A stretch of DNA of 64,000 nucleotides from Escherichia phage phiWec177, in sequence record LC739532.1, one strand, 5' to 3'. The position numbers were made by a program, and so were the translations under genes. Shown here piece after piece: positions 9,102 to 62,590 of the stretch; position 1 is the first letter of the stretch, and each line of letters begins with the position of its first letter. The notes under the pieces are model-generated. The model did no database searches and was not told the origin of the DNA. It was given only the letters and a program-made list of their open reading frames with translations.

Positions 9102-9617
9102 TCAACTTAGTTTTGCAAACTCTCCGTGGAGTTTAATAGCAGCTTCACAGTAAGCTTTATGGGCTTCTTCTTCTGTTGTGTATGTCCCTATATGTATAGT
9201 CTTGCCATTATGGTTAATCTGGGCTTTCCACTTACCAGACTTACTTCTACTTGTACCTTTTAAGTTTTTTGATGTTCTAGGTTGTCTCCTATTAGACATG
9301 TTCTGTTCTTTTGTGGCCTCTCTTAGATTGTCCCAAGCGTTATTCAAACCATCTCCATCTTTGTGGTCAATTTGCTTATCAGGCCACTTGCCTGTCATCC
9401 AGAACCAAGCAATTCGGTGATTGCCTGTCCTGTATCCTAAAATCTGTGTGTGCATATACACACCAGACCTTGTGCGCTTAATTGCTCCGGCTTGGCTTCC
9501 AATAACCACCCTACTACTGTGTGGAGGTCTACCAATCCATGTTAAGACCCCTGTTTCGGGGTCATAATCTAACCAAGATTTTAACTGTTCATGTGTGAAT
9601 CCACAATCTCTCATCAA
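9102..9617 (-). CDS. HNH homing endonuclease (HNH plus AP2-like DNA-binding region)
   Basis: 171 aa; H..QIDHKDGDGLNNAWDNLREATKEQN HNH core; C-terminal GKWKAQI...GTYTTEEEAHKAY AP2-like; paralog of 32513-33004; overlaps polymerase stop by 4 nt. Confidence 0.75.
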   Translation of the reverse strand: MMRDCGFTHEQLKSWLDYDPETGVLTWIGRPPHSSRVVIGSQAGAIKRTRSGVYMHTQILGYRTGNHRIAWFWMTGKWPDKQIDHKDGDGLNNAWDNLREATKEQNMSNRRQPRTSKNLKGTSRSKSGKWKAQINHNGKTIHIGTYTTEEEAHKAYCEAAIKLHGEFAKLS

Positions 9618-29444: not shown

Positions 29445-29930
29445 ATGAATTACATGGAGATTCGACCATTTGACACAGCTAATGGTGAAGGGGTTCGGGT
29501 AAGCCTCTTCGTAGCTGGCTGTAAACATCACTGTGAAGGCTGCTTTAACAGGGAGTCTTGGAAGTTTAATGCTGGTAAAGAGTTTACTTATGCAAACCTC
29601 TACGGCATCATTAAGTTAATGGATGATAAGGCCATTAGTGGGTTGTCAATACTTGGTGGAGAGCCTCTGGATGACAGAAACATTCAAGAGGTCACCAACA
29701 TATGCAAACGTATTAAAACTGTTTACCCAGAAAAATCTATATGGCTTTGGACAGGTTTTCAGTTACACGAAAAAATCCACCTAGATGTGATGAAATATGT
29801 TGACGTGGTGATTGATGGTAAGTATGATTCATCTAAACCAACAGTTAAACCGTATCGTGGTTCTGATAACCAAAACCTCTGGAGAAAAGAGTATGGGTGG
29901 CAAGGCGATTGTCAATGGCGAGCAGAATGA
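29445..29930 (+). CDS. nrdG: anaerobic ribonucleotide reductase activating protein (radical SAM)
   Basis: 161 aa with CKHHCEGC cluster (CxxxCxxC). Confidence 0.75.
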   Translation: MNYMEIRPFDTANGEGVRVSLFVAGCKHHCEGCFNRESWKFNAGKEFTYANLYGIIKLMDDKAISGLSILGGEPLDDRNIQEVTNICKRIKTVYPEKSIWLWTGFQLHEKIHLDVMKYVDVVIDGKYDSSKPTVKPYRGSDNQNLWRKEYGWQGDCQWRAE

Positions 29931-30452: not shown

Positions 30453-30773
30453 ATGAGCAAAGTTTATAACACTCGTAAATTACAGATTTTCTTACTGTGC
30501 CAGTTTATGGCTAGAGAGCATAACTCCTACTATTGTGGTACAGGATTCATTAGTGATAATGATGGCTCATATCTCCCATTCAAAGAGGCTGTAAAACTCT
30601 TCAATGAAGAGAAAAGCTCTGAGAAAGATATTGAAAAGGTTAAATTAACCTATAGTAAGAAAGATAAGAAGATTATCTGCCTAGACAACTTTGTGAAAGT
30701 TACCAAAGAAACTAAAGAGTTAATGGAAGAAAGTGAAATTCCATTCACAAGAATCTTGAAAGTAGCTCAGTAA
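30453..30773 (+). CDS. hypothetical protein
   Basis: Track ORF. Confidence 0.35.
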   Translation: MSKVYNTRKLQIFLLCQFMAREHNSYYCGTGFISDNDGSYLPFKEAVKLFNEEKSSEKDIEKVKLTYSKKDKKIICLDNFVKVTKETKELMEESEIPFTRILKVAQ

Positions 30774-30785
30774 GCAGATACTATA

Positions 30786-30815
30786 AGGGAACTGTAAAGG
30801 TTCCCTTTTTATTTT
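30786..30815 (+). terminator. rho-independent terminator
   Basis: AGGGAAC-loop-GTTCCCT then TTTTT. Confidence 0.6.
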
Positions 30816-30824: not shown

Positions 30825-31340
30825 ATGTATCTGTCAAATCTGAAACGTTCTGCTGCAATGTCAGTGTTAAGACTCAGTTTTGAGGAACGTCAAGAGTTCA
30901 TTGACTCTCACCAATACGACCCTTCCAACTCCAATCACATGATTCTCTGGAATCGTGAGAGTACTCGTGAAAGAGCATTATTTCGATATTACCCACACTA
31001 TACCATAGACAACCTATATGAATGCTTTGTTGTGAAGAACACCATTACAGTACTCAATAAACTTTGCAGATACACAGGCAGTCAATCCTTCACATTAGGT
31101 CACCACAAACCTGTTACAAAAGGTGGTGAACATCACTGTGCAAACTGGTTTATCCAGACTAAACTTGATAACCAGAAGCAAGGGGATAGTCTTTTAAGTA
31201 CCCCTAAGATGACCTACGAAGAGCAAGAGAAATATATCAAAAATAATATGCCAGATGTGCTTGACAACCACTATACAGATTTGGCAATATCTCTCCTGTT
31301 GAAGTTCGAGACAGTTTATAGGGCAACTTACAATGGCTAA
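30825..31340 (+). CDS. HNH-like nuclease domain protein
   Basis: GHHKPVTKGGEHHCANW...N spacing resembles the HNH core. Confidence 0.45.
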   Translation: MYLSNLKRSAAMSVLRLSFEERQEFIDSHQYDPSNSNHMILWNRESTRERALFRYYPHYTIDNLYECFVVKNTITVLNKLCRYTGSQSFTLGHHKPVTKGGEHHCANWFIQTKLDNQKQGDSLLSTPKMTYEEQEKYIKNNMPDVLDNHYTDLAISLLLKFETVYRATYNG

Positions 31341-31611
31341 AGAAAAGTGGGAGATTTTACCATTAGTCAGTGAAGGAGGTAATGGTTGTGAAATGTACAT
31401 GATACGTGGTCATGTTCCAGAGCCAATTGCACTTGAGATGGTAAACAACTTTACAGATGGTTCTTACAAAGACTTAGGAGAGCCAACTATAAAGCAGCAA
31501 TGGGTAAAGCCTGTACCAGACAGCACAGGTAACTGTAGTGTACTTTATCACGTTGTAGACCCTGCAAAATGCAAATCTGCAATGGCAGTAACAAACGTAA
31601 CTTTTGATTGA
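31333..31611 (+). CDS. hypothetical protein
   Basis: Track ORF. Confidence 0.3.
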   Translation: MAKEKWEILPLVSEGGNGCEMYMIRGHVPEPIALEMVNNFTDGSYKDLGEPTIKQQWVKPVPDSTGNCSVLYHVVDPAKCKSAMAVTNVTFD

Positions 31612-32504
31612 GAGAGAAAACTATGAAAACATCTATCCGTGTTACAGTTCATTCACCAACTAAAGGGACTCATGAAGAAGAGTTTAACATCGTCCAATTC
31701 CCTTCTGGTGAGATTGGTGGACACTTTTCACCGGAGTTTGTTGATTTCACTGCTTATGCAGCATCATCTATCAACAATGTGATTATGATTGTAAAAGGTT
31801 ATGATAAGGACACATTGTTTGCTGTGGCACTTGCTAAAGAAGCAATTGATGATTTAATTCCTCATGATTATGCTTTAAAGACTGTCATCTTTTACTACTT
31901 ACCAAATGCACGATATGACCGTCACATGTTTAAAGGCGACGCAGCAGCTTTAAAGGTTTTTGCTAAACAGGTAAATGCAATGGGGTTTGGTGCAGTCTGT
32001 GCAGTTGACCCTCACAGTTACGTTCCAGATAACCTGTTTAACTGCTTCCAGAGTATTCCTCAAAAGGAGATTGCAGTCCACTACGCAAATGACCCACTGA
32101 TTGATTACTTAGTAGCCCCAGATGCAGGTGCTGCTAAGAAGATTGCAGAGACTGCTAAAGAGGTGGATAAACCATACATCACAATGTCTAAAGTGCGTAA
32201 CCTTAAGACTGGTGAAATTACTGGTATGCGAATCCTTGATGATGTTGATTTGACAGATAAAACCGTCATGATTCTGGATGATATCTGTGATGGTGGTCGA
32301 ACCTTCATAGAAGCAGCGAAACATCTTCGTGAAGCAGGTGCAAAACGTGTGGAACTATATGTAACACATGGTATCTTCTCTAAAGATGTTGAAAACCTTC
32401 TTGACAATGGTATCGACCATATTTACACTACAAACTCTTTAGGCGAAGCTAAAGACCGTGGCTTAACACATTACAGTCAAGTTACTGTAGCAAACCTTGA
32501 TTAG
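31608..32504 (+). CDS. prs: ribose-phosphate pyrophosphokinase-like enzyme (Prs/Adps-like)
   Basis: PRTase-type motif VMILDDICDGGRTF; likely true start ATG 31623 (MKTSIRV); ribose-phosphate versus ADP-ribose substrate cannot be told by eye. Confidence 0.75.
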   Translation: MREKTMKTSIRVTVHSPTKGTHEEEFNIVQFPSGEIGGHFSPEFVDFTAYAASSINNVIMIVKGYDKDTLFAVALAKEAIDDLIPHDYALKTVIFYYLPNARYDRHMFKGDAAALKVFAKQVNAMGFGAVCAVDPHSYVPDNLFNCFQSIPQKEIAVHYANDPLIDYLVAPDAGAAKKIAETAKEVDKPYITMSKVRNLKTGEITGMRILDDVDLTDKTVMILDDICDGGRTFIEAAKHLREAGAKRVELYVTHGIFSKDVENLLDNGIDHIYTTNSLGEAKDRGLTHYSQVTVANLD

Positions 32505-32512
32505 GTAACAGT

Positions 32513-33004
32513 ATGAATAAGGGTTATTTTGAAAAATACCTAATATATGAACCAGATACAGGTTTATTAATTTGGAGAGTAACCCTTTGCAGTACCGCTA
32601 TTGCTGGTAATGTGGCTGGCACAAGGTCTAAGAAGGGTTATATCCAAGTCCAGATAAATAAGAAGAGGTACTATGCACATAATATTGCATGGATTATGTC
32701 TGGAGGTGAGATACCAAGTGGATATGAGATAGACCACATAGACCTTGATAAAGCTAATAATAAGTTGGAGAATTTAAGACTTAGCACAAAGTCACAAAAT
32801 CAGAGGAATAGGGGTATACACAAGAATAATAAAACTGGTGTGAAGGGTGTAAGTTTTTGTAAACAAACAGGTCTTTACAAAGCAAGAGTCATGCTTTACC
32901 GTAAAGAATACTTTTGTGGAAGATTTAAAACGGTAGAAGAAGCAAAAGAAGCTGTAATTAAAAAGCGAATAGAACTTCATGGTGAGTTTGCAAGACATAA
33001 CTAA
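32513..33004 (+). CDS. HNH homing endonuclease (HNH plus AP2-like)
   Basis: 163 aa; EIDHIDLDKANNKLENLRLSTKSQN; C-terminal AP2-like; paralog of 9102-9617. Confidence 0.75.
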   Translation: MNKGYFEKYLIYEPDTGLLIWRVTLCSTAIAGNVAGTRSKKGYIQVQINKKRYYAHNIAWIMSGGEIPSGYEIDHIDLDKANNKLENLRLSTKSQNQRNRGIHKNNKTGVKGVSFCKQTGLYKARVMLYRKEYFCGRFKTVEEAKEAVIKKRIELHGEFARHN

Positions 33005-33019
33005 GAGAGAGATTAAAAG

Positions 33020-34801
33020 ATGACTAAATCACTTTATGCAGTACCAGCAGGTCTTAATGCAGATGCTTACAAGGCATCACATATATATCAGTATCCAGAT
33101 GCTACGCAATATCTTATGTTGAACCTGACACCACGTAGTGACAAATGGTTTAACAGCCCTTTAGCAATTGACGGTGTAGTGGCTTTTGGTATTCAACGTT
33201 TTGTTAAAGATTACTTGATAGACCACTGGAACGCCACTTTCTTTGAACGTGACAAAAAAGAAGCAATTGACGAAATCTTAGAAGTCATGAACGGTGTTCT
33301 AGGTAAAGATGCTATCGGTCGAGAGCATTGGGAAGCACTTCACGACTTAGGTTATCTACCAGTTGAAGTATACGCTGTAGAAGAAGGCACAGTTGTCCCT
33401 ATGCGTGCCCCAATGATTGTCTTCCAGAACACTATTTCAGGTTTCCATTGGGTAGCTGGGTATCTGGAAGATGCTTTCTCTGCTGAGATTTGGAAGGCTT
33501 GTACCATTGCAACTATTGCATTGCACTACAAACGTATCTGTAAGAAGTGGGCTGACCTTACTTGTGACAACGACTTGCATCTACCCTATCAGTGCCATGA
33601 CTTTGCTATGCGTGGTATGTCCGGCTTTACTGATGACGCATTTAACGCTGTAGGTCACTTAACCAGCTTTAAAGGAACTGATAGTTTCCCTGCTGTTTAT
33701 ACAGCTAAACGCATCTACGGTCAGTCCTACCCAATCTCTGATATTGGTAACTCTGTACCAGCCACTGAACACTCTGTAATGTGTGCAAACATTGCTTGGG
33801 AAGGTGGTAATGAGTTGATTGAAGAAGAAAGACGCTTTAAAGGTGAGTTACAAACCTTCCGTCGTTTCTTAACAGAAACTTACCCAACTGGTATTGCAAG
33901 TATTGTTTCAGATACTTACAACTTCTGGAGAACTGTGTCAGAAATCTTACCAGCACTCCGTAAAGAAATTATGGAACGTGATGGCAAACTGGTAATTCGC
34001 CCTGACTCTGGAGACCCTGTACATATTGTCACAGGTTATAAAGCAATTCACTTAGAGTGTGCTAAGAAGGCTTATTACGAGCACCTAAGCAAGCTAGAGG
34101 CAAGTGACACAATGCTGAACTCTGTCCTGAACATGAAGCTTGAAAACATCAATTATGGTATTGCTGGATGGCTACTGTCAGAAGGCTACGAAATGGTTGT
34201 TGACAGAGAAGACTTTGAAGTTGCTGATACAGTGCTGTTGAAAAATGCTTATATGGTTGGTTCTGCAAACGTTGTAACACGTCCTGTAGCGGAGATTGAT
34301 GGAGCTATCAAGACACTGTATAACATCTTTGGGGGAACTATTAACTCTAAAGGGTTTAAGGTACTGGATGAGCATATCGGCCTTATCTATGGTGACTCTA
34401 TCACGCTGGAACGTGCAAACGAAATCCTGAAGCGTCTGTATGAAATGGGTTTTGCAAGCTCTAACGTAGTGTTTGGCGTAGGCTCTTACACTTACCAGTA
34501 CATGACTCGTGACACCTTTGCATTTGCTGTTAAAGCAACTCTTGCAAGCATTGGTGGTAAAGAGATTATGCTTGCAAAAGACCCTAAAACAGATAGTGGT
34601 GTTAAGAAGTCTGCTTTTGGTGGTGTAGCACCTATGTGGGATGGTGATAAGTTGAAAGCTGTAGATGGCTATGGATTCCAGAGCTTTGCAGATGCACTTG
34701 ACCACCCAGCTTGTGCTTTACGTTTAGTCTTTAGTGACTCTGAGCAGTACGGTTACACATCTCTTGGTGATATTCGAAATAATATTGACAAGCAGCTTTA
34801 A
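33020..34801 (+). CDS. nadV: nicotinamide phosphoribosyltransferase family protein (NAMPT/NadV-like, possibly Namat)
   Basis: 593 aa with NAMPT-like stretches ADAYKASHIYQYP, HDFAMRGMSGF...SFKGTDS, IVSDTYNFW...IRPDSGDP. Confidence 0.85.
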   Translation: MTKSLYAVPAGLNADAYKASHIYQYPDATQYLMLNLTPRSDKWFNSPLAIDGVVAFGIQRFVKDYLIDHWNATFFERDKKEAIDEILEVMNGVLGKDAIGREHWEALHDLGYLPVEVYAVEEGTVVPMRAPMIVFQNTISGFHWVAGYLEDAFSAEIWKACTIATIALHYKRICKKWADLTCDNDLHLPYQCHDFAMRGMSGFTDDAFNAVGHLTSFKGTDSFPAVYTAKRIYGQSYPISDIGNSVPATEHSVMCANIAWEGGNELIEEERRFKGELQTFRRFLTETYPTGIASIVSDTYNFWRTVSEILPALRKEIMERDGKLVIRPDSGDPVHIVTGYKAIHLECAKKAYYEHLSKLEASDTMLNSVLNMKLENINYGIAGWLLSEGYEMVVDREDFEVADTVLLKNAYMVGSANVVTRPVAEIDGAIKTLYNIFGGTINSKGFKVLDEHIGLIYGDSITLERANEILKRLYEMGFASSNVVFGVGSYTYQYMTRDTFAFAVKATLASIGGKEIMLAKDPKTDSGVKKSAFGGVAPMWDGDKLKAVDGYGFQSFADALDHPACALRLVFSDSEQYGYTSLGDIRNNIDKQL

Positions 34802-34814
34802 AAGTATATGATAA

Positions 34815-34840
34815 GAGGCTCCTACGGGAGCCTTTTTAAT
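34815..34840 (+). terminator. rho-independent terminator
   Basis: GAGGCTCC-TACG-GGAGCCT then TTTTT. Confidence 0.6.
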
Positions 34841-35375: not shown

Positions 35376-37742
35376 ATGCGCATGGTAAATGACCACGCAG
35401 AAGTGATTAAGAGTTCAACTTCTTTGGAGACATCTCAAGCACAGATTACAATGACACCTGAAATGTTCAGCCTTTTGAGTTCTGGTGTATATACCTTTAA
35501 AGAAAGGGCAGTGATTCGTGAACTGTCATGTAACGCAGTAGATGCTCAGAAAGAAGCTGGAAAAGAGAATATCCCGTTCCATGTGCATTTACCTACTCGT
35601 TTTGAGCCTTACTTTGAAGTCCGTGATTTTGGAACTGGATTGACTCATGATAAAGTTATGAGTTTGTACCTAAACTACGGGGCTTCTACGAAGAATGACT
35701 CTAATGATTACATTGGTGCAATGGGTATCGGTTCAAAATCTCCATTTGCAATTGCTCAGTCATTCACAGTATCTAGCTATGTTGATGGTGTTGTTAATAA
35801 GTACTCTGTTTACCTTGAGAATGGTATCCCTCAAGTAACTAAGCTGACCACTAACCCAACAAAAGAACCTAATGGTTTAGCTGTACGTGTGGCAGTTGCT
35901 GACCACCGTATTTCAAAGTTCTTTGAAGAGGCTGGTCACGTATACTCATACTTTGCTGTAAAACCAGAAAGTAATATTGTATATGATGACGTGTTAGCAG
36001 ACATGAATGTCATTGCTCGTGAAGAAGGTGTTTATGACGCTATGATTCATAAGCAAAGCTGGCGTTCTAGTGGTAACAGGACAGAGTTTAATGTGGTGAT
36101 GGGTAATATTGCCTATCCAGTTAATATGGAAGCATTACTTGGTGATGATTTCTTCAAAGTCTTGCCAGAGTTTTTCCGTAGGAGCGTAGACCTTGTAAAC
36201 ATTTACATGCCTATTGGTTCAGTTGCTATTGCAGCTTCTCGTGAAGCATTGCAGATGAATGATACGACAAAAAATGTTATCATTGAGGCTACTAAAAAGA
36301 TAACTGAAGCCATTACAAAGGATGTTATCAAGAAAGTTAACAGCCAACCTACACTCATGGATGCTGCACAGGCTTATGCTGAGTTACGTTTGAACTCACG
36401 AGAGATGTTTAATGTTGTGTGTCCAAAGCTAGAGTGGGGAGGCGTTAAGCTTGATTCTCTGGAAGTAGAATTACTAAACATCCGTCGTGGGATTATCTAC
36501 GCAGAAGACGGCTCAGTCATTTATGAACGTGACGGTAAAGGTAATATCAAGGTTGATAGGAACGGGAACAATATCCCTAAAGTGGATTATCTTTATAATC
36601 CAGTTGCTTATGTCAAGTTCAACTCTTTAGAGAGTAAGATTCGTGCAACAGCACTTTCCTACACTCAAGAGGCAAGTATGTTCAATATCTTTGGTGCAAT
36701 GCGTAAAAGCCAAATTGAACAGTTTTTGTTCGTGATTAATGACCGTCGTAATAAAAATGGCACTGAGAAGACTGTAGGCCGCAATCAGATTCTGCGTGGT
36801 GCATGTCGAGATTACGCCAGTGAGTCAAGTCTGTTTCACAGATATAATGGTATTGTGTTTGTATTCTCGACTGAAAAAGAGCTAGATGACTTAATCAACC
36901 TACACAAACTTGATAAAAGCTTGTTAAAGATTGTGAAGATGTCTGATAAGGAACATCACTATCAGCGTAAAGAAGCTGTAAGAGGTGTTGTAAAACTCTG
37001 GAAAGCTGTTCCAGCAGAAGGTGTAGCCTCATACACAGAGGTGTCAGAAGACTTAGACACAATTGAAGAACCTCAGCTTTACATTAAGGCAGTTGGCGAC
37101 ACAGTTGATGGTGAATGTTTTTGCTCATCTCCAGAAGATGTAGCTAAGTCAGTTGCTAATGTTATAGGGAAGACAGTCTATGTTTTCCGAAAAGCAAATT
37201 GGAAAAAGATACCAGAAGACTGGATTGAAGTAGATGAGAAGCTCTTGAACGACAGCTTAACTGATGTTCATTGGATTAATCATAACAGGTATATGACACG
37301 CATCTGTATGCGTGGTGTCCTTAACCTTACAAGCTGTTGGATTATTACCAGAAACTTTACGTTCAATAACAGGAAGATTTCTGATGGTTATTGCTATTCA
37401 CGGGACACAAACAAAACTATCTTCCTAGAAGGTAATGAAGATGCTGTTGAGGCAATGTTCGGTAAAATCCAATACGTTGCTGCACAATTTGCATACACTT
37501 ACACTATTAGTGTGTTGCAAGATTTGAAAAGGTGTCTTGATAATGATACAAAGCTTTACAAGAAAATTAAGAAAGCTGGTGACCGTATGTTTATTAAGGT
37601 GACAAACTACTTCTCAAAAAGAAAACAAGAAAACTTCTTGCTTTCTCATTTAGATTGGAATAAAGTGTCACCCATCGAAGTGAGTAAGTTCTTGGGCTTT
37701 GATGTGAAGTGTGTTCCAGAAGGGACTACAATTTACGATTAA
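35376..37742 (+). CDS. rIIA: rIIA-like protein (N-terminal GHKL-type ATPase fold)
   Basis: 788 aa; AVIRELSCNAVDAQ, VRDFGTGL and GAMGIGSKSPF match GHKL ATPase N-box/G1/G2 as in T4 rIIA. Confidence 0.75.
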   Translation: MRMVNDHAEVIKSSTSLETSQAQITMTPEMFSLLSSGVYTFKERAVIRELSCNAVDAQKEAGKENIPFHVHLPTRFEPYFEVRDFGTGLTHDKVMSLYLNYGASTKNDSNDYIGAMGIGSKSPFAIAQSFTVSSYVDGVVNKYSVYLENGIPQVTKLTTNPTKEPNGLAVRVAVADHRISKFFEEAGHVYSYFAVKPESNIVYDDVLADMNVIAREEGVYDAMIHKQSWRSSGNRTEFNVVMGNIAYPVNMEALLGDDFFKVLPEFFRRSVDLVNIYMPIGSVAIAASREALQMNDTTKNVIIEATKKITEAITKDVIKKVNSQPTLMDAAQAYAELRLNSREMFNVVCPKLEWGGVKLDSLEVELLNIRRGIIYAEDGSVIYERDGKGNIKVDRNGNNIPKVDYLYNPVAYVKFNSLESKIRATALSYTQEASMFNIFGAMRKSQIEQFLFVINDRRNKNGTEKTVGRNQILRGACRDYASESSLFHRYNGIVFVFSTEKELDDLINLHKLDKSLLKIVKMSDKEHHYQRKEAVRGVVKLWKAVPAEGVASYTEVSEDLDTIEEPQLYIKAVGDTVDGECFCSSPEDVAKSVANVIGKTVYVFRKANWKKIPEDWIEVDEKLLNDSLTDVHWINHNRYMTRICMRGVLNLTSCWIITRNFTFNNRKISDGYCYSRDTNKTIFLEGNEDAVEAMFGKIQYVAAQFAYTYTISVLQDLKRCLDNDTKLYKKIKKAGDRMFIKVTNYFSKRKQENFLLSHLDWNKVSPIEVSKFLGFDVKCVPEGTTIYD

Positions 37743-37747
37743 AGTGT

Positions 37748-37777
37748 TTGACAAGGGGCTTCAAAGCCCCTTAGAAT
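37748..37777 (+). promoter_or_regulatory. sigma70-like promoter overlapping a hairpin
   Basis: TTGACA-18 bp-TAGAAT; spacer contains AGGGGCTT-CAAA-GCCCCTT hairpin. Confidence 0.4.
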
Positions 37778-37821
37778 ATCCTCACAAAATGATTTATTAA
37801 CTAACAAGAGAGAGTAATAAG

Positions 37822-38931
37822 ATGACTACTAAAACTAAATCACAGATTGACGCAGAAATTTACAAACTGGTTAAAGATGGCAAGCTGACTAAAACAGCTA
37901 TTGCACAGAGATTTAATACTTCAACCCGTTCAGTTGGTCGTGCTGTAGAGCGTCATGAAGCAACCTTAAAAGGAAATAAGAAGGTGACTTCTACACCAGC
38001 TACGAAGACTTTGAAGCAAGTTGCTAAGACCTTTAAAAAGAAAGCTGGCAAACCAGTTGAAAAGGTTGTTAAAGATGCTGTACAGAAAGCTCCGGTAAAT
38101 AAACTGCATGAAGCTATGCAGAAAGATGACAAGATTGAGTACATGATTACTGGTGACTCTGTAATTATGACTTACGGTTCAGAGTCTGAAATTGTTGAAT
38201 CTACTCATCCGAACTATCAAGAGATTGTAGTTCATGTTGTGAAAGGTGAGTTTAAGAAAGCCTTTGAACTGATGAACATTCGTAAGTCTATCGAAAACTT
38301 CACTCAGGGGGCTATCACAATCAAAGGTGACAAGCTATTCTACGGTGCTGTTGAGATGCGTTCTACTCTGGTTGACCGTATTCTTCACATGATGAAGACT
38401 GGTGATAAAGGTTTTGAACGACTTGTAATGTTCTTCGAAAAACTGATGGAAAACCCATCTAAAGATTCTGTAGAACAACTTTGGGGCTTCGTATCTCACC
38501 TTGATGTTGAAATTGATGAAGAAGGCTACATCATTGGTTGGAAGAAAGTATCCACTCGTGAAGGCAAGCTGGTTGACTCCCACACCTACAGAGTACCTAA
38601 TGATTTAGGTAATATTGTAGAAATGCCACGTTGGATGGTTGATAATAACCGTAACGTGACTTGCTCTCAGGGTCTTCATGTTGGTGCTTGGGATTATGTT
38701 CGTTGCTTCTCAGGTGATACAATTCTGAAGGTTCGTGTTCATCCACGAGATGTTGTATCTGTTCCAACTGATTACAACGATATGAAGATGCGCTCGTCTC
38801 GTTATGAAGTTGCAGCAATCGTTGATAATCAACGTAAAGTACTGAAAGCATGGGATGGCAAGACTGAAGCTTTTCATGTCATCGTTGGTACTGCTGGAGA
38901 ACTTATCTCTCAGCGTAAACGTGAAATCTAA
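37822..38931 (+). CDS. rIIB: rIIB-like protein
   Basis: Immediately downstream of rIIA-like gene; ...VHPRDVVSVPTDYNDMKMR... resembles rIIB as I recall it; not verified. Confidence 0.55.
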   Translation: MTTKTKSQIDAEIYKLVKDGKLTKTAIAQRFNTSTRSVGRAVERHEATLKGNKKVTSTPATKTLKQVAKTFKKKAGKPVEKVVKDAVQKAPVNKLHEAMQKDDKIEYMITGDSVIMTYGSESEIVESTHPNYQEIVVHVVKGEFKKAFELMNIRKSIENFTQGAITIKGDKLFYGAVEMRSTLVDRILHMMKTGDKGFERLVMFFEKLMENPSKDSVEQLWGFVSHLDVEIDEEGYIIGWKKVSTREGKLVDSHTYRVPNDLGNIVEMPRWMVDNNRNVTCSQGLHVGAWDYVRCFSGDTILKVRVHPRDVVSVPTDYNDMKMRSSRYEVAAIVDNQRKVLKAWDGKTEAFHVIVGTAGELISQRKREI

Positions 38932-42290: not shown

Positions 42291-43070
42291 ATGGGTATTG
42301 TAAAAGTTGTAAAAGGTAACTTACTAGCTGCCTTCAAAAACACAGACATTGAGTTAATTGCTCATGGTTGCAACTGTCGTAACCTCATGGGTGCTGGAAT
42401 CGCTCAAAAAATTGCTAAGATTTTCCCAAAAGCTGAAGAAGCTGACCGGAAGTTCCATAAAAAGTTTGGCTACAGTGCCCATGATATCGGATACCAGATG
42501 GCTGGTGAGGTGTCACATGCTCGAACGGAGTATGGTTACATTTTTAACCTATATACACAGTTGGATGTTGGGAAGTGTGCATCATACCGATACTTAGTGG
42601 AGTCACTAGAAAAACTCCGTAAATTTTGCTGGCTGCACAACATTCGTAAGATTGGTTTACCCATGATTGGGGCAGGTATAGGCGGTTTAGATGCACAAGC
42701 TGTGAAAAGCCTCATTAATAGTGTTATGTATAACGTTGATGTGTACCTATACGTCTATGATGAAGCAATGGCAAGTGTAGTTACCACTAAGTATGCTACC
42801 TCAGCACCACAATTCTATGATGGTGTCGTGCTAAGTGACGGGAAGACTAATCAAGTTACCCTCTATCAGCTTGTTGATGGCAAGGTTGAGGTTAGTTACC
42901 CTCTGGTTAGTGAGATGGGTATGTGTAACAGTGAAATGTTCCCAGTTGACCCGTTTGGAAGATATGAAGGTGTATTCTTTGATAACTACCCAGCAGCGTA
43001 CATCTACACAACAAATCAGGATGAAGTTCACTACTTGCTGTATTCTAAAAAGTTCAAATTCATAAGCTGA
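42291..43070 (+). CDS. macro domain protein (ADP-ribose binding/processing)
   Basis: VVKGNLLAAFKNTDIELIAHGCNCRNLMGAGIAQKI and later IGLPMIGAGIGGLD resemble macro-domain G-rich motifs. Confidence 0.6.
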   Translation: MGIVKVVKGNLLAAFKNTDIELIAHGCNCRNLMGAGIAQKIAKIFPKAEEADRKFHKKFGYSAHDIGYQMAGEVSHARTEYGYIFNLYTQLDVGKCASYRYLVESLEKLRKFCWLHNIRKIGLPMIGAGIGGLDAQAVKSLINSVMYNVDVYLYVYDEAMASVVTTKYATSAPQFYDGVVLSDGKTNQVTLYQLVDGKVEVSYPLVSEMGMCNSEMFPVDPFGRYEGVFFDNYPAAYIYTTNQDEVHYLLYSKKFKFIS

Positions 43071-43465
43071 TTAGTACTTCACAGTATCTACAAATCATCT
43101 AAGAAGGCTGCCTAACCCATTGAAAAATTTAAGGTAAGGCGGCCTTTTTCATTTTCAATTTGTGCAGGTATCTGGAGGGGTCTGTACAGATATCCCAAAA
43201 AATCTCATCGCCGGATAGAAAAATCATTTTCAAAACGTGCAGAGAAAAATCAGGTCGGGCAAGAAAAATCATTTTAGAATTGTGCAGGTAGGTGGGTGTA
43301 GGTGGGGATGTCGCCATTTCTCACAAGGCTACCACATCTAAAAAGAAAAGTCAACAGAAAAATTTGTAGCGGATTGAAAAATAATTCTTGATTGTAGTTC
43401 TGTTTTGTGGTAGTCGTGCGCGCCCGTTCCTCTCCCAAACTTACAAAAATATTTAATAAAAACTA

Positions 43466-43761: not shown

Positions 43762-43923
43762 AATGATTAAAGAAGGCAATGTAATAAGCTACAAAGATTT
43801 AGACGGATACCCAAAAATTGGGAAAGTTTTCTACCTTTACAAGTCAGTGATGGATAATGACTGCATAGCCCTAACAAATGGCGACAAGATAACCATGAAA
43901 GATTTTATAAAAATTATTTCATA
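43762..43923 (+). CDS. hypothetical small protein (cassette gene 2)
   Basis: 53-codon ORF MIKEGNVISYKDL... below track cutoff; fills gap before repeat A1. Confidence 0.3.
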
Positions 43924-44011
43924 AAGTGCTTTACATGGGGTTTAAAAAGGTAGTATCTTAAGCCCCAGATAAAGAGCTTTACCACTCAATCCTAAATTGG
44001 AGAACTTAAAA
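43922..44011 (+). repeat. intergenic module type A, copy 1
   Basis: Hairpin GGGGTTTAA...TTAAGCCCC then AGATAAAGAGCTTTACCACTCAATCCTAAATTGGAGAACTTAAAA before ATG. Confidence 0.7.
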
Positions 44012-44392
44012 ATGGCATACCGCGCACCGAAATTCATCAATAAAGAAAATTTTCGTAATGTATTAGAGAAGGCGCTTGATGAAAAATTTAACGGCAAAAT
44101 AATTGTTGTTCACTCGTTCAATTTTAAGTATGATATCAACGGGAATAAAATCAACCATTACACGGCAACCATGTTAGATGGTACTCTTTCAAGTGAAAAA
44201 ACAATTCTCCATGCACTTGCAGGACGTGGTAAAAACCTGATAAGATGCGATAAGAGACGTTATCAGGGTGGCGCATATGGTTATGATGATGCTGTTTATC
44301 ATCTTGAAAATATGGGCTATTCAGTGGAAAAAGCTGGAGTGTCTCAAATAATCGGCAGTGACGGCTATGTGACAATTTTCAAAATTAACTAA
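44012..44392 (+). CDS. hypothetical protein (cassette gene 3)
   Basis: ATG at 44012 after type A module; track ORF 43997 starts at upstream TTG. Confidence 0.45.
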   Translation: MAYRAPKFINKENFRNVLEKALDEKFNGKIIVVHSFNFKYDINGNKINHYTATMLDGTLSSEKTILHALAGRGKNLIRCDKRRYQGGAYGYDDAVYHLENMGYSVEKAGVSQIIGSDGYVTIFKIN

Positions 44393-44480
44393 TAAAGTAC
44401 TTTACAGGGGGCTTACAGTTCGATAAAGTAAGCCCCAGATAAAGAGCTTTACCACTCAATCCTAAACTGGAGTTTCAAAA
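44393..44480 (+). repeat. intergenic module type A, copy 2
   Basis: AAAGTACTTT palindrome, hairpin GGGGCTTAC...GTAAGCCCC, conserved AGATAAAGAGCTTTACCACTCAATCCTAAACTGGAG. Confidence 0.75.
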
Positions 44481-44777
44481 ATGAAACTATCAAATAAAGC
44501 CCGTGAAAATCTAAGCAAGTTACTTAACAAAATTGATTTTATTGAAACATCAAGGAATAGTCATGATGTTATGGAATGGTTACACGGCAAAATAAAAGGC
44601 CGTCGTGTAGTAATTTGCTTATGGAATAGTTGCAGGGAATATAAAAAACCTGTATTACAAGTCAATATCTACGATGATACTTTTAAAAGCCCTGTAAAGT
44701 CTAAAAGCGATTTATTAGAATCTTATGAGATAACTGTAAGTGGCAAAGTATCACGTAAAGAGGAAACACCGTGTTAA
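44481..44777 (+). CDS. hypothetical protein (cassette gene 4)
   Basis: Track ORF after module A2. Confidence 0.45.
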   Translation: MKLSNKARENLSKLLNKIDFIETSRNSHDVMEWLHGKIKGRRVVICLWNSCREYKKPVLQVNIYDDTFKSPVKSKSDLLESYEITVSGKVSRKEETPC

Positions 44778-45193: not shown

Positions 45194-45466
45194 ATGTATA
45201 CTACTAACAACGGTCGCACTTTAAACGTAACCCTACGCCACTATGTGAACGGTGTAATGCACTTCGAGGATTTACAAGCCGAACAACACATTTTAGATTG
45301 GCAACTTGCAGGACTCCAAAAAACTGTTACAGGATACGGGAAAAAGATTCCAACTAGCTGGAAAGTATACTACGAAGGCCGTTTGCGCAGAATTTATCAA
45401 GATGTATACAGCAATAGCGCAACAAGTTACATCATGGTAAAAGGTAAAAAGCTGCATTTAGCATAA
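45194..45466 (+). CDS. hypothetical protein (cassette gene 6)
   Basis: Track ORF after module B1. Confidence 0.45.
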   Translation: MYTTNNGRTLNVTLRHYVNGVMHFEDLQAEQHILDWQLAGLQKTVTGYGKKIPTSWKVYYEGRLRRIYQDVYSNSATSYIMVKGKKLHLA

Positions 45467-45552
45467 AGTACTTTACAAGGGGCTTATAGTTCGATAAAGT
45501 AAGCCCCAGATAAAGAGCTTTACCACTCAATCCTAAACTGGAGAACTTAAAA
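45464..45552 (+). repeat. intergenic module type A, copy 3
   Basis: Near-identical to copy 2. Confidence 0.75.
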
Positions 45553-45957
45553 ATGGCTATTAATAACCGTGAATTATCAATTTTAAAAGCACGTTTGACC
45601 GTTAACCGGATTAATGTTATTACGTCATCAGCACCAGATGAAACATTGCACAGCATTATTGGGAAGATTCAAAGTATTATTTTAGACGTTGAAAACGTAA
45701 AAAGTTCATTGGCTGACGTTGCAGCAGGTATCACGCTAGACGGTGCGCAATATGAAATGATTGATATGCTAGGCAAATCTAAGGTAATGAATAGGGAGTT
45801 AGATTTGAAAATGTTTAGATTTGCTGTTAAAGTATGGCTATCCGTCGAGTATGACGCTAATTTTGCAATCGCTGATTTCTTTGCCACTTGGTTACAACGT
45901 AATTTGACAAATCACGATTTTCGTGATGTCTGTGATGCAATTTATGCAGAACTCTAA
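45553..45957 (+). CDS. hypothetical protein (cassette gene 7)
   Basis: Track ORF after module A3. Confidence 0.45.
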   Translation: MAINNRELSILKARLTVNRINVITSSAPDETLHSIIGKIQSIILDVENVKSSLADVAAGITLDGAQYEMIDMLGKSKVMNRELDLKMFRFAVKVWLSVEYDANFAIADFFATWLQRNLTNHDFRDVCDAIYAEL

Positions 45958-46057: not shown

Positions 46058-46261
46058 ATGGCTATTATCAACGGCTTACACATTGAAACAACTCACATCA
46101 AAGATATTAAAGTTGGTGATATAGTTCTCTTTCACGGCGTAGAAAAAACTGTCACGGCGAAAGATATTACAGAAGAATCTTTCATGGGCCGGTCACTCTT
46201 CGGTGATTCTTATTGCTTAGGTTACCGTGCAGTTTTAAAAGTTGTCAAAAATAACAAATAA
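46058..46261 (+). CDS. hypothetical small protein (cassette gene 8)
   Basis: Track ORF after module B2. Confidence 0.45.
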   Translation: MAIINGLHIETTHIKDIKVGDIVLFHGVEKTVTAKDITEESFMGRSLFGDSYCLGYRAVLKVVKNNK

Positions 46262-46346
46262 AGTACTTTACAAGGGGCTTAAAAGTTGGTATCTTAAGCC
46301 CCAGATAAAGAGCTTTACCACTAAATCCTAAACTGGAGATTCAAAA
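46259..46346 (+). repeat. intergenic module type A, copy 4
   Basis: AAAGTACTTT, hairpin GGGGCTTAA...TTAAGCCCC, AGATAAAGAGCTTTACCACTAAATCCTAAACTGGAG. Confidence 0.75.
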
Positions 46347-46889
46347 ATGAAATGCTTTCATGGTACTACTCAAGAAAACTTTATCAACCTGATTAATAAC
46401 GGTGATAAACCATCGGGCGCATGGAATTGTTCGGATATGGACGGCAATTTTTACGTTTATCCAGAAAATAAAATCTATGGCGACGATGAGGAAGAGATAA
46501 CAGCCGAAGGTATCCAACAAGCTCTAGGCAATGCCACTATCACCGCAGCTTTTCAGATGAAGACTCAAAATATTGTTATCTTAGAACTCGATATTCCAGA
46601 GGATGAGCTAAACGATGATTATTCTTGTGATAATATGTCGAGTGTAGCAAGTTTTACAGAGTACTTTGATGTAAGTTGGATTAAAAAGGTTTACGTAACA
46701 GAATTTAATGCGATGTATTCGCCTTTTTGTCTTCCTTCACTGGATAACCCAAATATGAACTATCTTGATGAGTCTCTGGAGCTTCTCGCTAAAAGTGTTC
46801 AACAGTCGGACAGTATTCAGGTTTTTTGTGACATCATGGATACACTAACGGGAAACATCACAGAGAGAGACTTAAAGAGCTTTTTTTAA
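46347..46889 (+). CDS. hypothetical protein (cassette gene 9)
   Basis: 180 aa, acidic; no motif recognised. Confidence 0.45.
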   Translation: MKCFHGTTQENFINLINNGDKPSGAWNCSDMDGNFYVYPENKIYGDDEEEITAEGIQQALGNATITAAFQMKTQNIVILELDIPEDELNDDYSCDNMSSVASFTEYFDVSWIKKVYVTEFNAMYSPFCLPSLDNPNMNYLDESLELLAKSVQQSDSIQVFCDIMDTLTGNITERDLKSFF

Positions 46890-59735: not shown

Positions 59736-59812
59736 CTCTGTTTAGCTCAGCTTGGTAGAGCGTTCCGTTTGGGGCGGTAAGGCCGGAGGTTCAAGTCCTC
59801 CAACAGAGACCA
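59736..59812 (+). tRNA. tRNA-Pro (anticodon TGG), tentative
   Basis: Acceptor CTCTGTT/AACAGAG, D-arm GCTC..GAGC, loop TTTGGGG, T-arm GGAGG-TTCAAGT-CCTCC, CCA encoded. Confidence 0.7.
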
Positions 59813-59819
59813 AATTAAT

Positions 59820-59894
59820 GTCGTAGAAGGCAAATGGTTAGCCACCTGACCTTCAATCAGTTGCTCGCGGGTTCGAATCCCGTCTACGACTCCA
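59820..59894 (+). tRNA. tRNA (anticodon TTC, Glu?) tentative
   Basis: Acceptor GTCGTAG/CTACGAC, T-arm GCGGG-TTCGAAT-CCCGT, CCA; anticodon loop CCTTCAA. Confidence 0.6.
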
Positions 59895-59977
59895 AATTTG
59901 ACAGAAGACCAAGTACAGCAAACAACTTTACTTTTCGCGCATAGAAAACTTAAAATTTTGGTCTGGTCATAAAAGTT

Positions 59978-60054
59978 CGCGGGTATAGAGAAAGGGCGTC
60001 TCACATGTCTCATTAGCATGGTATCGGCAGGTTCGACTCCTGCACCCGCCTCCA
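59978..60054 (+). tRNA. tRNA (anticodon CAT; Met or Ile2)
   Basis: Anticodon arm CATGT-CTCATTA-GCATG, T-arm GCAGG-TTCGACT-CCTGC, CCA. Confidence 0.65.
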
Positions 60055-60138
60055 AATTTACAGAAGACCGTTTACAGCAACATTTATTAAATTTTTAGCG
60101 GAAAAAATTGAAAGATACGGTCTGGTAATACTAAACAT

Positions 60139-60214
60139 GGTTAGGAAGCACATAAGGTATGTGCGGTCGCCTGTTAAGCGAATGGCACAGGGTTCGAATC
60201 CCTGACTAACCGCA
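60139..60214 (+). tRNA. tRNA-Asn (anticodon GTT), tentative
   Basis: D-arm GCAC..GTGC, anticodon loop CTGTTAA, T-arm CAGGG-TTCGAAT-CCCTG; 3' end lacks full CCA. Confidence 0.6.
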
Positions 60215-60223
60215 AAATTAAAT

Positions 60224-60311
60224 GTGTCGTTATCCCGTAGATGGTAGCGGTGGGGACTGTAAATCCCTTGTCATTGAGACTCGGTAGGTTCGACTCCTAC
60301 ACGGCACACCA
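60224..60311 (+). tRNA. tRNA-Tyr (anticodon GTA), class II
   Basis: Acceptor GTGTCGT/ACGGCAC, anticodon arm GGGGA-CTGTAAA-TCCCT, long variable arm, T-arm GTAGG-TTCGACT-CCTAC, CCA. Confidence 0.7.
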
Positions 60312-60333
60312 ACACTTAGCGAGATACTTAGTT

Positions 60334-60762
60334 ATGAGAGATGAAGTATACAAATCACAACTTGGTATGAGTTTGGGAACTGCACAAAACAGACTAGTAA
60401 AAGATTTGCTATTCGATTTTATATGTAAGACAAATCAAAATAGATGTTTTCAGTGCGGAAAAGAAATGACTAGGGATGATTTCTCTATCGAGCATAAGAT
60501 TCCGTGGAGACATAGTGAGAATGCAAAAGAGCTTTTCTTTTCACTAGATAATATTTCTTATAGTCATCTTAAATGTAACATGAAAGCAGCAAGACCAGCA
60601 CAGATAAGTGAAAGAAAACATAAAACAATTAAACACGGAACTGCGTATAGCTATTTTAAAGGCTGTAGATGCGATGAGTGTAGGCTGGCTAAGAATGCTG
60701 AGAGTAGAAGAAACTATAGTCCAGAAAGACGTAGGAAGAAGTATCTAAGAAATGGTACATGA
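60334..60762 (+). CDS. HNH endonuclease inside the tRNA array
   Basis: Start at internal Met (MRDEVYK...) of track ORF 60241-60762, whose N-terminal part overlaps tRNA-Tyr; CFQCGKEM...SIEHKIPW...N...HLKCN HNH pattern. Confidence 0.7.
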   Translation: MRDEVYKSQLGMSLGTAQNRLVKDLLFDFICKTNQNRCFQCGKEMTRDDFSIEHKIPWRHSENAKELFFSLDNISYSHLKCNMKAARPAQISERKHKTIKHGTAYSYFKGCRCDECRLAKNAESRRNYSPERRRKKYLRNGT

Positions 60763-60766
60763 ATTT

Positions 60767-60842
60767 GGGGTATTAGTTTAGACGGGTAAAATACGGGATT
60801 GTCTCTCCTGAGCCGCGAGTTCGATTCTCGCATACCTCGCCA
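60767..60842 (+). tRNA. tRNA-Asp (anticodon GTC), tentative
   Basis: Acceptor GGGGTAT/ATACCTC, anticodon arm CGGGA-TTGTCTC-TCCTG, T-arm GCGAG-TTCGATT-CTCGC, CCA. Confidence 0.6.
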
Positions 60843-61270
60843 ATTTTGAGAGGGCTATTTAGCCCCTCCCTTAAAGAGTTCTTACGAGTATTCTTTAAAG
60901 GAGCAGAAGACCAAATTCAGCAAGTTACTTAAAATTTCAAGCCAATTTAATTTTGAAAAATTTAAAACTTGGTCTGGCTCAACAAATTTACAGAAGACCG
61001 TTTACAGCAAAACTTAAACAATCTATTTCTCGGTAAAGAAAAGGCGAAGGTTCGATTCCTTCACTCGGCAGATGTCGAGTTGGTGTAATGGTAGCACTTA
61101 AGATGATAAACAACGGTCTGGTAATTATCTTTGTAGATAAGTTATTAAGCTTACCTGTGAGTATGCGACCACAAAGGGTGAAAGGGTAAATTCTAGATTT
61201 AAACCCAAAAAGGCACATCGCTACAGACCTTAAGCAAGTCTGGGTAGCTTATCTACAAAGATAATTTAAT

Positions 61271-61346
61271 GGAAGTGTAGCAGAATGGTGATGCGGCAGA
61301 CTTTTAATCTGACAGGCGATGGGTTCGAATCCCTCCACTTCTACCA
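61271..61346 (+). tRNA. tRNA-Lys (anticodon TTT)
   Basis: Anticodon loop CTTTTAA, T-loop TTCGAAT, acceptor GGAAGTG/CACTTCT, CCA; T-stem only 3 clear pairs. Confidence 0.6.
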
Positions 61347-61351
61347 AAAAT

Positions 61352-61428
61352 GGTTCAGTCGCAGATAAGGTAATGCAAGGGTCTCATAAGCCCTATGAAT
61401 GTGGGTTCGATTCCCATCTGAACCTCCA
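61352..61428 (+). tRNA. tRNA (anticodon CAT; Met/fMet or Ile2)
   Basis: Acceptor GGTTCAG/CTGAACC, anticodon loop CTCATAA, T-arm GTGGG-TTCGATT-CCCAT, CCA. Confidence 0.7.
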
Positions 61429-61430
61429 AT

Positions 61431-61506
61431 GCTGTGAAAGCACATATGGATGTGCATTCGGCTGATAACCGAAAGGCAGAAGGTTCAAATCCTTCTCACA
61501 GTACCA
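61431..61506 (+). tRNA. tRNA-Ile (anticodon GAT)
   Basis: Acceptor GCTGTGA/TCACAGT, D-arm GCAC..GTGC, anticodon arm TTCGG-CTGATAA-CCGAA, T-arm GAAGG-TTCAAAT-CCTTC, CCA. Confidence 0.75.
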
Positions 61507-61521
61507 ATTTCAATAAAGTTG

Positions 61522-61550
61522 TTGACATTGAGATGTGACTACTTTATAGT
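61522..61550 (+). promoter_or_regulatory. sigma70-like promoter inside tRNA array
   Basis: TTGACA-17 bp-TATAGT. Confidence 0.5.
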
Positions 61551-61754
61551 AACCTTAGTTTTCGTTGCGTAGCGTCTATTTTGCAAATTTAAAATAAATG
61601 CAAACGACAATGTTTTTCTGGCAGTAGCTTGATAGGCTAAACACCAGTGAGGTCTTCCAATCCCTCATCAAAGAATTTGGCGTACTCGCCCACGGTATGA
61701 TTAATAAGGTGGGCATCTTTAAGGGCTTTCTAAGAGAGTCTTTAAAGATAATTA

Positions 61755-61836
61755 CGGGGCGTATCTCAGCTGTCTTCTAAACAGCCGTTAACCGAGTAAG
61801 TGGAGTATGCGGGTTCGAGTCCTGCCGCCTCGACCA
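61755..61836 (+). tRNA. non-canonical tRNA-like element (Arg TCT-like anticodon arm, no clear D-arm)
   Basis: Acceptor CGGGGCG/CGCCTCG, perfect arm GCTGT-CTTCTAA-ACAGC, T-arm GCGGG-TTCGAGT-CCTGC, CCA; only 7 nt between acceptor and anticodon arm, 23 nt before T-arm. Confidence 0.4.
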
Positions 61837-61979
61837 ATTTAGTTAGCAGATTACTTAGACGACCTAAGCGGGTCTTCCTGTAGGGAGGTGGTCTGTATCT
61901 CATGTTTTCAAGAACATGTAAATAATCTGAGAAGGGGCTTTACAGTGTTGAGATAATACGGTAAGCTTCGAATTATAGT

Positions 61980-62062: not shown

Positions 62063-62075
62063 AAGTCTTATTAGG

Positions 62076-62501: not shown

Positions 62502-62508
62502 AATTAAT

Positions 62509-62584: not shown

Positions 62585-62590
62585 AACAAT

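Follow-up and report, generated by a model that had tools for sequence, protein, structure and literature searches.

A three-gene locus in a 64,000-nt stretch of Escherichia phage phiWec177 DNA (LC739532.1; the whole stretch is hereafter the window) is best explained, with high probability, as a NARP1 counter-defence operon encoding the enzymes Adps and Namat, with a selfish HNH endonuclease gene lodged in the spacer between them. The initial annotation of the window had described a Prs-like and a NAMPT-like gene flanking an HNH gene and, further downstream, a macro-domain gene; the coordinates of all four open reading frames (ORFs) were reproduced exactly in the ORF list, all on the plus strand. 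They are the Adps ORF (31608-32504; 298 aa from TTG 31608 or 293 aa from ATG 31623), the HNH endonuclease ORF (32513-33004; 163 aa, an HNH_3 domain with an AP2-like DNA-binding tail), the Namat ORF (33020-34801; 593 aa, with NAMPT-family matches) and the macro-domain ORF (42291-43070; 259 aa, a macro core at about residues 1-165 followed by a beta-rich extension at about 176-259). The Prs-like, HNH, NAMPT-like and macro-domain assignments were borne out far beyond chance by Pfam, PHROG and NCBIfam scans. NARP1 here is an already described pathway, in the very genus of its discovery, and is not new. The present analysis supports it with orthology, with motifs and fold, and with the anatomy and population distribution of the insertion.

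NARP1 was found genetically in Felixounavirus Bas63 (JohannRWettstein, MZ501086), as genes 79-80 (Osterman et al. 2024, bioRxiv 10.1101/2024.02.11.579819). The phiWec177 Namat is 97% identical to Bas63_0080 (both 593 aa) and the phiWec177 Adps is 78% identical to Bas63_0079, in both cases without gaps, and the C-terminal catalytic half of Adps is near-identical. Gapless identity at these levels combined with synteny shared with Bas63 79-80 indicates orthology, which upholds the NARP1 reading that the initial annotation had offered as the modern one. On sequence comparison, the phiWec177 pair is an ortholog of the founding example of NARP1, beyond mere family resemblance. Namat begins 516 nt past the end of Adps, a single ORF intervening, which is well inside the ten-gene distance used to define NARP1. 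The 4.4-kb locus is 100% identical in Escherichia phages phiWec172 (Felixounavirus) and phiWec174, and 90-96% identical in some 200 Felix O1-like Escherichia, Salmonella, Shigella and Citrobacter phages. In the phiWec172 record the first gene is annotated as 'nadR: ribose-phosphate pyrophosphokinase' and the third as 'hypothetical protein'.

The family scans placed Namat in PF04095 (8e-35), PHROG 448 (5.5e-201) and NF006629 (1.4e-140), and phmmer matched it to the SPbetaL1 Namat structures 9W5W and 9W5X with an E-value of 8.6e-128. Aligned to the SPbetaL1 reference core (D13, Y15, F189, R192, D215, the catalytic His, R306, D308 and G360-D361), the phiWec177 enzyme keeps D15, Y17, F195, R198, D221, H251, R327, D329 and G458-D459, which were invariant across 30 homologs. 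In 9W5W and 9W5X a selectivity clamp binds the adenine of ADP-ribose pyrophosphate (ADPR-PP); the selectivity clamp helix (SCH) follows the motif GS-X-phi-X-phi-X-phi-TRD with an aromatic side chain at each of positions 3 and 7, and the selectivity clamp loop (SCL) gives a stacking residue, either an Arg in position 3 or whichever residue follows Lys/Tyr, stacking in Bas63 being by the fourth loop residue (NAR 2026, PMC12774641). The SCH of phiWec177 Namat reads GSYTYQYMTRD (G488-D498), with Y490 and Y494 at the adenine-stacking positions, and its SCL is S40-D41-K42-W43, identical in Bas63. SPbetaL1 Namat has GSFTYQYNTRD at the SCH, and the corresponding stretches of H. ducreyi NadV (HdNadV, the closest solved true Nampt; GAQTYQRNTRD) and of the Xanthomonas (Xcc) Nampt (GGALLQKVDRD) fail the clamp motif. 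Foldseek searches with the AlphaFold2 model of Namat (pLDDT 92, pTM 0.91) returned a Namat crystal structure as the best match (TM 0.95, E 2e-54), with HdNadV at 1.5e-47 and human and other mammalian NAMPT at about 1e-38. In stating that the sequence leaves the chemistry undecided, the initial annotation was therefore too cautious, given the presence of a clamp that true Nampts lack and the orthology to Bas63 79-80. With this clamp and an Adps partner, the enzyme would not be classed as a bona fide Nampt/NadV of the NARP2 type.

Relative to that of SPbetaL1, the Felix-type Namat has about 100 additional aa, in a ~14-aa insertion at about residues 258-277 and a ~70-85-aa insertion at about residues 340-427, the latter predicted to form a compact alpha/beta subdomain (pLDDT 93-96). 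Among the 30 homologs the first site held 12-50 aa and the second 18-101 aa, with clamp and core fixed, and the insertions are lineage-specific elaborations at known variable sites. No Pfam match was returned for the 340-427 insertion searched alone (the best among the insertion and extension queries was DUF4528, E 0.056), and the structural paper modelled Bas63 Namat without comment on its insertions (PMC12774641). As a side observation, chromosomal homologs of about 496 aa in Klebsiella, Cronobacter, Erwinia, Kosakonia and Phytobacter, annotated as nicotinate phosphoribosyltransferase, carry a GSF/YTYQYNTRD clamp; from this motif, these enterobacterial proteins are likely bacterial Namat and not Nampt.

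Adps was matched by PF00156 (1e-11), PF14572 (4.5e-10) and PHROG 619 (6e-97), and it shares 38% identity with the Adps of the NARP1-AP operon of Vibrio phage Wyman. A profile comparison of the 298-aa protein with bona fide Prs, as proposed in the initial annotation, gave a clear outcome: all NCBIfam Prs equivalog cutoffs were missed by a wide margin (best 103.7 vs 296 bits). The generic Prs subfamily model TIGR01251 was narrowly passed (123.6 vs 113 bits). Pfam matched the C-terminal phosphoribosyltransferase (PRT) domains alone and did not detect a Prs N-terminal domain, and PADLOC gave Adps weak PRT-domain matches alone (ShosT, PsyrT) and did not match Namat at all. The motifs RYDR 97, DPH 129 (with the His of DxH), the catalytic Lys190 in SKVRN and the ribose-binding DD 219-220 (293-aa numbering) were all recognised, and K190 aligns with the flexible-loop Lys that is K162 in SPbetaL1 Adps and K197 in B. 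subtilis Prs. The identities and profile scores place the Prs-like protein with the phage Adps clade, not with cellular Prs. Its start is most likely ATG 31623 (293 aa) instead of TTG 31608 (298 aa), because GAGAGAGAAAACT-ATG, spanning 31610-31625, contains a ribosome-binding-site (RBS)-like motif resembling the GAGAGAGATTAAAAG-ATG ahead of Namat, and because the Bas63 annotation uses the ATG equivalent to 31623.

In the proposed mechanism, a host SIR2-HerA, type I Thoeris, DSR1/2 or SEFIR system would split NAD+ into ADP-ribose (ADPR) plus nicotinamide, Adps would use ATP to pyrophosphorylate ADPR to ADPR-PP, and Namat would swap the pyrophosphate of ADPR-PP for nicotinamide to give NAD+ directly; regeneration of NAD+ would let the phage finish replication. 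Both reactions, ADPR plus ATP to ADPR-PP by Adps and ADPR-PP plus nicotinamide to NAD+ by Namat, were reconstituted in vitro with the SPbetaL1 enzymes (10.1101/2024.02.11.579819). Homologs from SPbetaL1, DyoEdafos, Vibrio phage Gary and P. foliorum have been shown to carry out the conversion to ADPR-PP and then NAD+, and for Bas63 there is metabolic evidence of it. Bas63 without genes 79-80 was sensitive to SIR2-HerA and its NAD+ recovery was abolished, and ADPR-PP (m/z 720.010) was seen only when wild-type Bas63 met the defence system (10.1101/2024.02.11.579819). By analogy, the phiWec177 enzymes would be expected to behave as their orthologs do.

Alternatively, the pair could run classical salvage, in which the Prs-like enzyme converts ribose-5-phosphate to phosphoribosyl pyrophosphate (PRPP), the NAMPT-like enzyme joins PRPP and nicotinamide to give nicotinamide mononucleotide (NMN), and host NadR/PncC finish NAD+. 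Such a pathway fits how Pfam, NCBIfam, GenBank and the Felix O1 genome paper annotate the genes, as well as the TIGR01251 score, and Namat does make NMN from PRPP in vitro (PMC12774641). We nevertheless consider it very improbable. The Bas63 phenotype is independent of the host NMN-to-NAD enzymes PncC and NadR, since the orthologs protect even in a pncC nadR double-deletion host; ADPR-PP accumulates, and SPbetaL1 Adps gave no product in a Prs-type control reaction (10.1101/2024.02.11.579819). The adenine clamp found in phiWec177 Namat and missing from true Nampts, and the wide miss of every Prs equivalog cutoff, likewise speak against salvage. No Nmnat is annotated among Bas63 genes 1-111, a statement about the annotation, with Nmnat not searched for directly. 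The Iyer/Aravind survey of NAD-ADPr systems read the NAMPT homolog as NadV salvage and left the Prs-like partner unmentioned.

We turn to the gene between Adps and Namat. Its product matched PF13392 over the full model (5.6e-19, 1-46 of 46), AP2 (3.8e-4) and PHROG 99 (3.8e-68), and was matched as HEase by PADLOC. The ORF begins 8 nt past the Adps stop codon (TAGGTAACAGTATG), its translation is probably coupled to that of Adps, and it has its own start and stop between two intact genes. The description of the pair as interrupted by an HNH gene accordingly holds for the location, the Adps-Namat spacer, and not for the coding sequences, neither of which is broken. We inspected eight junctions, anchored on coding coordinates, each of which holds either the HNH ORF or a hairpin spacer. 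The HNH-minus spacers of Bas63, LF82P3, Seyj1-1, S19cd, EC106 and Mordin are 45-47 nt long, and all six contain a hairpin, GGGGCTT..AAGCCCC, followed by ATTTTG, in which stem and loop variation between phages preserves pairing (dG -11.5 kcal/mol, z -2.25 in Bas63). In both HNH-plus junctions, those of phiWec177 and Felix O1, the HNH ORF replaces the interval from the Adps stop to the end of the hairpin and leaves the Namat RBS intact. This anatomy suggests that the HNH gene was inserted into the 45-47-nt spacer and displaced the conserved hairpin.

The HNH gene was found in 61 phage records, always in single copy, whereas the locus is present in about 250. A paralogous HNH endonuclease gene, with 38% protein identity, lies at 9111-9584 on the minus strand of the window, and the Felix O1 genome paper reports six HNH genes, such genes being carried at variable sites in Felix O1-type phages. 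DNA identity to Bas63 is 96-98% in the flanks and falls to 58-79% over the Adps 5' half and 77% over the first 100 nt of Namat. Across 252 records the Namat 5' patch was bimodal, with 96 records at 90% identity or above and 156 at 60-90%. When 60 evenly spaced records were cross-tabulated with the complete HNH-plus list, the HNH gene was present in 13 of 23 genomes with the phiWec177 haplotype and in 2 of the 37 others (odds ratio 23, Fisher p = 1.5e-5, for genomes that are non-independent), and it was found in none of the 34 sampled genomes whose Namat 5' patch was at most 85.5% identical. Such linkage between HNH gene and haplotype fits the co-conversion and target-site immunity expected around a homing endonuclease gene, and the sequence features together identify the 163-aa HNH gene as a putative selfish, free-standing homing endonuclease gene outside the pathway.

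A gene in this position could instead be a functional accessory of the pathway, like Adpp in Gary or RyDEP in mycobacteriophage DyoEdafos. Other phages do hold accessory genes exactly between Adps and Namat, and the tight packing of the HNH ORF with its probable translational coupling to Adps would suit such a role. The product is, however, a textbook HNH_3 plus AP2-like homing endonuclease with a paralog elsewhere in the genome; the gene is missing from about three quarters of the relatives, including Bas63, whose NARP1 works; and several HNH genes of this kind occupy variable sites in Felix O1-type phages. On domain content and patchy distribution we rejected the accessory role, to which we attach hardly any probability, and retained the NARP1 operon colonised by a selfish HNH gene.

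Several points weigh against this overall interpretation. The Bas63 enzymes failed purification, and what is known of the chemistry in vitro was obtained with SPbetaL1 and further distant homologs (10.1101/2024.02.11.579819); chemistry and anti-defence phenotype both derive from orthologs or homologs, the phiWec177 enzymes being known from their sequences. The PRPP-to-NMN reaction is kept by Namat as a side activity in vitro, so that some classical salvage is possible (PMC12774641). The Adps 5' half is strongly diverged from Bas63, at the 58-79% DNA identity given above. Removal of the hairpin by the HNH insertion may make the Adps:Namat expression ratio differ from that of Bas63. Finally, the association of HNH gene and haplotype could be plain linkage by descent among non-independent genomes; because linkage by descent predicts the same association, we infer active homing of the HNH enzyme with corresponding reserve.

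The macro-domain gene may add a third enzyme to the pathway. NAD+ cleavage by RES-type defences (aRES) yields ADPR-1''-phosphate, a product that is no substrate for Adps, and 15% of NARP1 operons hold Adpp, a Poa1p-like macro phosphatase that restores the pathway, the combination being NARP1-AP (bioRxiv 10.64898/2026.01.28.702374). The phiWec177 macro protein was recognised by PF01661 (1.1e-6) and PHROG 335 (6.5e-85). Its alignment with Gary Adpp, a biochemically validated enzyme, spans the entire macro domain (28% identity, E 2e-13), and the Bas63 ortholog aligns likewise. The suggestion of the initial annotation that this gene may be functionally related thus stands as a possibility, in view of this full-length macro-domain homology. 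TARG1/OARD1 was the best sequence match for both the macro protein and, via its Wyman ortholog, Adpp. Foldseek searches with the macro model (pLDDT 93) ranked the DarG macrodomain first, with DarG, TARG1 and Poa1p about equal (E 4e-10 to 1.5e-9) and Poa1p, at 1.5e-9, giving the lowest rmsd (2.2 A); the profile search ordered them TARG1, DarG and Poa1p. With the three within a four-fold range of E-values, fold and profile did not separate the chemistry. Further matches to DarG came from NCBIfam (8.5e-15; 54.8 bits against a 250-bit cutoff) and PADLOC (7.8e-16).

Residues at the active site were more telling. In single-sequence and profile alignments alike, TARG1 Lys84 is replaced by the family-invariant Gln90 (in NLYTQ) and TARG1 Asp125 by Gly131, and Adpp shows the same pattern (NVYGQ, GCGLAGG). 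Both TARG1 residues, like the DarG equivalent of Lys84, we take to be catalytic. A TARG1/DarG-type mechanism is therefore unlikely for the macro protein, judging from these substitutions, in which catalytic Lys and Asp give way to Gln and Gly as in Adpp. The C-terminal extension (about 176-259, ~85 aa, beta-rich and confidently modelled) occurs only in the Felix-like subgroup, is not shared by phage macro proteins of the short type (~155 aa), Adpp among them, and gave no Pfam match when searched alone.

The genomic setting of the macro gene is as follows. It belongs to a separate transcription unit 7.5 kb downstream of Namat, with rIIA, rIIB and over 10 other ORFs in between, and was found at the same position in Bas63 and about 256 Felix-like records. 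DNA homology to Bas63 stops 143 nt into the gene and resumes just past it (42433-43128), with flanks of about 92% identity and macro proteins that are 41% identical. The phiWec177 allele is rare: it was present at 95% identity or above in 12 phage records, and none fell at 60-95%. This pattern looks like cassette replacement or strong diversifying selection, and could reflect an arms race or the exchange of cassettes.

Two functions were weighed for the macro protein. In the first, it would be the third enzyme of a dispersed NARP1-AP, dephosphorylating ADPR-1''-phosphate made by aRES and feeding ADPR to Adps. The alignment with Gary Adpp, the macro subclass that both proteins belong to, the shared TARG1/OARD1 best match, the lowest rmsd to Poa1p, the Gln and Gly at the TARG1 Lys84 and Asp125 positions and the conserved gene position in Bas63 and the other Felix-like phages all agree with it. 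A macro protein homologous to Adpp/Poa1p is indeed present, but its gene, separated by over a dozen ORFs and part of another transcription unit, lies neither within the operon nor within two genes of NARP1, which was the scope of the NARP1-AP survey (10.64898/2026.01.28.702374). Phages of Escherichia, Salmonella, Shigella, Citrobacter and Klebsiella are absent from the NARP1-AP table, and no Felixounaviruses occur in the supplements of that study (10.64898/2026.01.28.702374), so the published table offers no enterobacterial precedent. The failure of fold and profile to separate Poa1p from TARG1 or DarG, and a C-terminal domain that Adpp lacks, also count against it. The macro family occurs in 2,821 phage records, as against 1,399 with Adps, and because it is so much commoner than Adps, its general role cannot depend on NARP1. 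The family includes Tk.4 of T4-like phages, which are not known to carry NARP1. On balance, an Adpp-like ADPR-1''-phosphate phosphatase is a candidate role to which the alignments lend a minority share of the probability, roughly a third, and the dispersed third-enzyme reading is correspondingly tentative; a link between the macro protein and NARP1 appears plausible from the sequence comparisons.

In the second, the protein would strip ADP-ribose from macromolecules, for instance DarT-modified DNA, or process ADPR esters, unrelated to NARP1. Its best NCBIfam and PADLOC matches and the top Foldseek match are DarG, the macro family is broad in phages without NARP1, and macro domains act on many 1''- and 2''-linked ADPR substrates. 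Against this stand the invariant Gln in place of the TARG1/DarG catalytic Lys, the Gly in place of the TARG1 Asp, and a DarG model score far under its cutoff. We regard this function, too, as possible and short of probable. That Felix O1-like phages as a group run a dispersed three-enzyme NARP1-AP, missed by operon-based surveys, seems to us rather doubtful. The macro C-terminal domain and the ~85-aa subdomain of Namat could be further lineage-specific adaptations.

Consensus matches delimit the predicted NARP1 transcription unit on the plus strand. A promoter-like TTGAAA-17-TACTAT followed by a terminator-like hairpin, at 30756-30807, probably bounds the unit upstream. At 34785-34836, immediately past the stop codon of Namat, a promoter-like TTGACA-16-TATGAT (11/12) overlaps a strong terminator hairpin, with a 10-bp stem and then a T run (dG -17.7 kcal/mol; none of 200 shuffled sequences folded equally well), and this would be the end of the unit. 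Co-transcription of orf171, orf92, Adps, HNH and Namat is accordingly predicted, from the promoter near 30.76 kb to the terminator at 34.81-34.84 kb. Of the two upstream genes, orf171 (30825-31340, plus strand; PHROG 3500, unknown function) is the ortholog of bas63_0077 and overlaps with its 3' end the start of orf92 (31333-31611, plus strand; PHROG 4726, unknown function), the ortholog of bas63_0078 directly upstream of Adps. A weak phrog_2214 match (2.8e-4) and an HH...N...H-like stretch raise the possibility that orf171 encodes a degenerate HNH protein. The family scan placed NrdG (29445-29930) and rIIA/rIIB (35376-38931) as neighbours of the locus. Relatives carry insertions just upstream of Adps: Seyj1-1 has four additional ORFs there and S19cd a DNA methylase gene. 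In Bas63 a 114-aa gene, bas63_0081, follows Namat directly and is absent from phiWec177 at about 34849; the borders of the NARP1 operon are hot spots for insertions and deletions.

Elsewhere in the window, a ~111-nt intergenic repeat occurs in four copies (43906-44016, 44376-44486, 45447-45557 and 46242-46352), 60-87% identical to the reference copy, which lie between small ORFs on the downstream side of the macro gene. Many more copies occur in the equivalent region of Bas63, and the repeat may serve the early region as a promoter/terminator module. Seventeen tRNA genes, typical of Felix O1-like phages, lie on the plus strand at 59736-63160.

These results are of value mainly as a correction. 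In about 250 public Felix O1-like genomes, this one among them, the genes still carry the labels 'ribose-phosphate pyrophosphokinase' and 'nicotinamide phosphoribosyltransferase', and they should be annotated as the anti-defence enzymes Adps and Namat, which is relevant to the choice of therapeutic or biocontrol Felixounaviruses against hosts with NAD+-depleting defences. What interest remains beyond this lies in the colonisation of the spacer by a homing endonuclease and in the possibility of a dispersed NARP1-AP. In the literature searched we found neither a homing endonuclease in the Adps-Namat spacer of about one quarter of the phages, with deletion of a mid-operon hairpin, nor an Adpp-like macro gene outside the operon in this genus. 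If the macro protein is functional, the host-defence range of NARP1 in these phages would be wider and include aRES.

Compared with known systems, the phiWec177 locus is closest to NARP1 of Bas63, with which it shares the genus, the synteny nrdG...79-80...rIIA-rIIB, both Namat insertions, the RBS motifs and the downstream terminator. Bas63 differs in having no HNH gene but a 45-nt spacer with a GC hairpin and then AUUUUG, another haplotype over the Adps 5' half and the first ~100 nt of Namat, the extra gene 0081 after Namat and a macro protein that is 41% identical. NARP1 of SPbetaL1 has the same fold (TM 0.95), the same catalytic residues, the GSxTYQYxTRD clamp and Adps upstream of Namat; it is about 37-38% identical over the structural alignment, lacks the two insertions of the phiWec177 Namat, and has an Arg in the SCL in place of Lys-Trp. 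Homologs of all three components of the Gary/Wyman NARP1-AP are encoded by phiWec177 (Adps 38%, macro 28% and Namat 38% identity), and a third gene lies between Adps and Namat in either case, but the middle gene of phiWec177 is HNH, and its macro gene is 7.5 kb downstream and encodes a C-terminal domain.

Among the free-standing homing endonuclease genes of T-even phages are the seg genes and mobE, which lies between nrdA and nrdB. The phiWec177 HNH gene resembles them as a self-contained ORF in a short spacer between conserved, functionally linked genes, polymorphic for presence or absence among close relatives and flanked by divergent sequence beside the insertion; it differs in its HNH_3/AP2 type, its homing being presumptive. 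Lastly, NARP2, the classical NadV-NatV salvage of Vibrio phage KVP40, also employs a NAMPT-family enzyme that restores NAD+ during infection, but it runs on PRPP with an Nmnat as partner and lacks Adps, whereas phiWec177 pairs a Namat-type clamp with an Adps partner.

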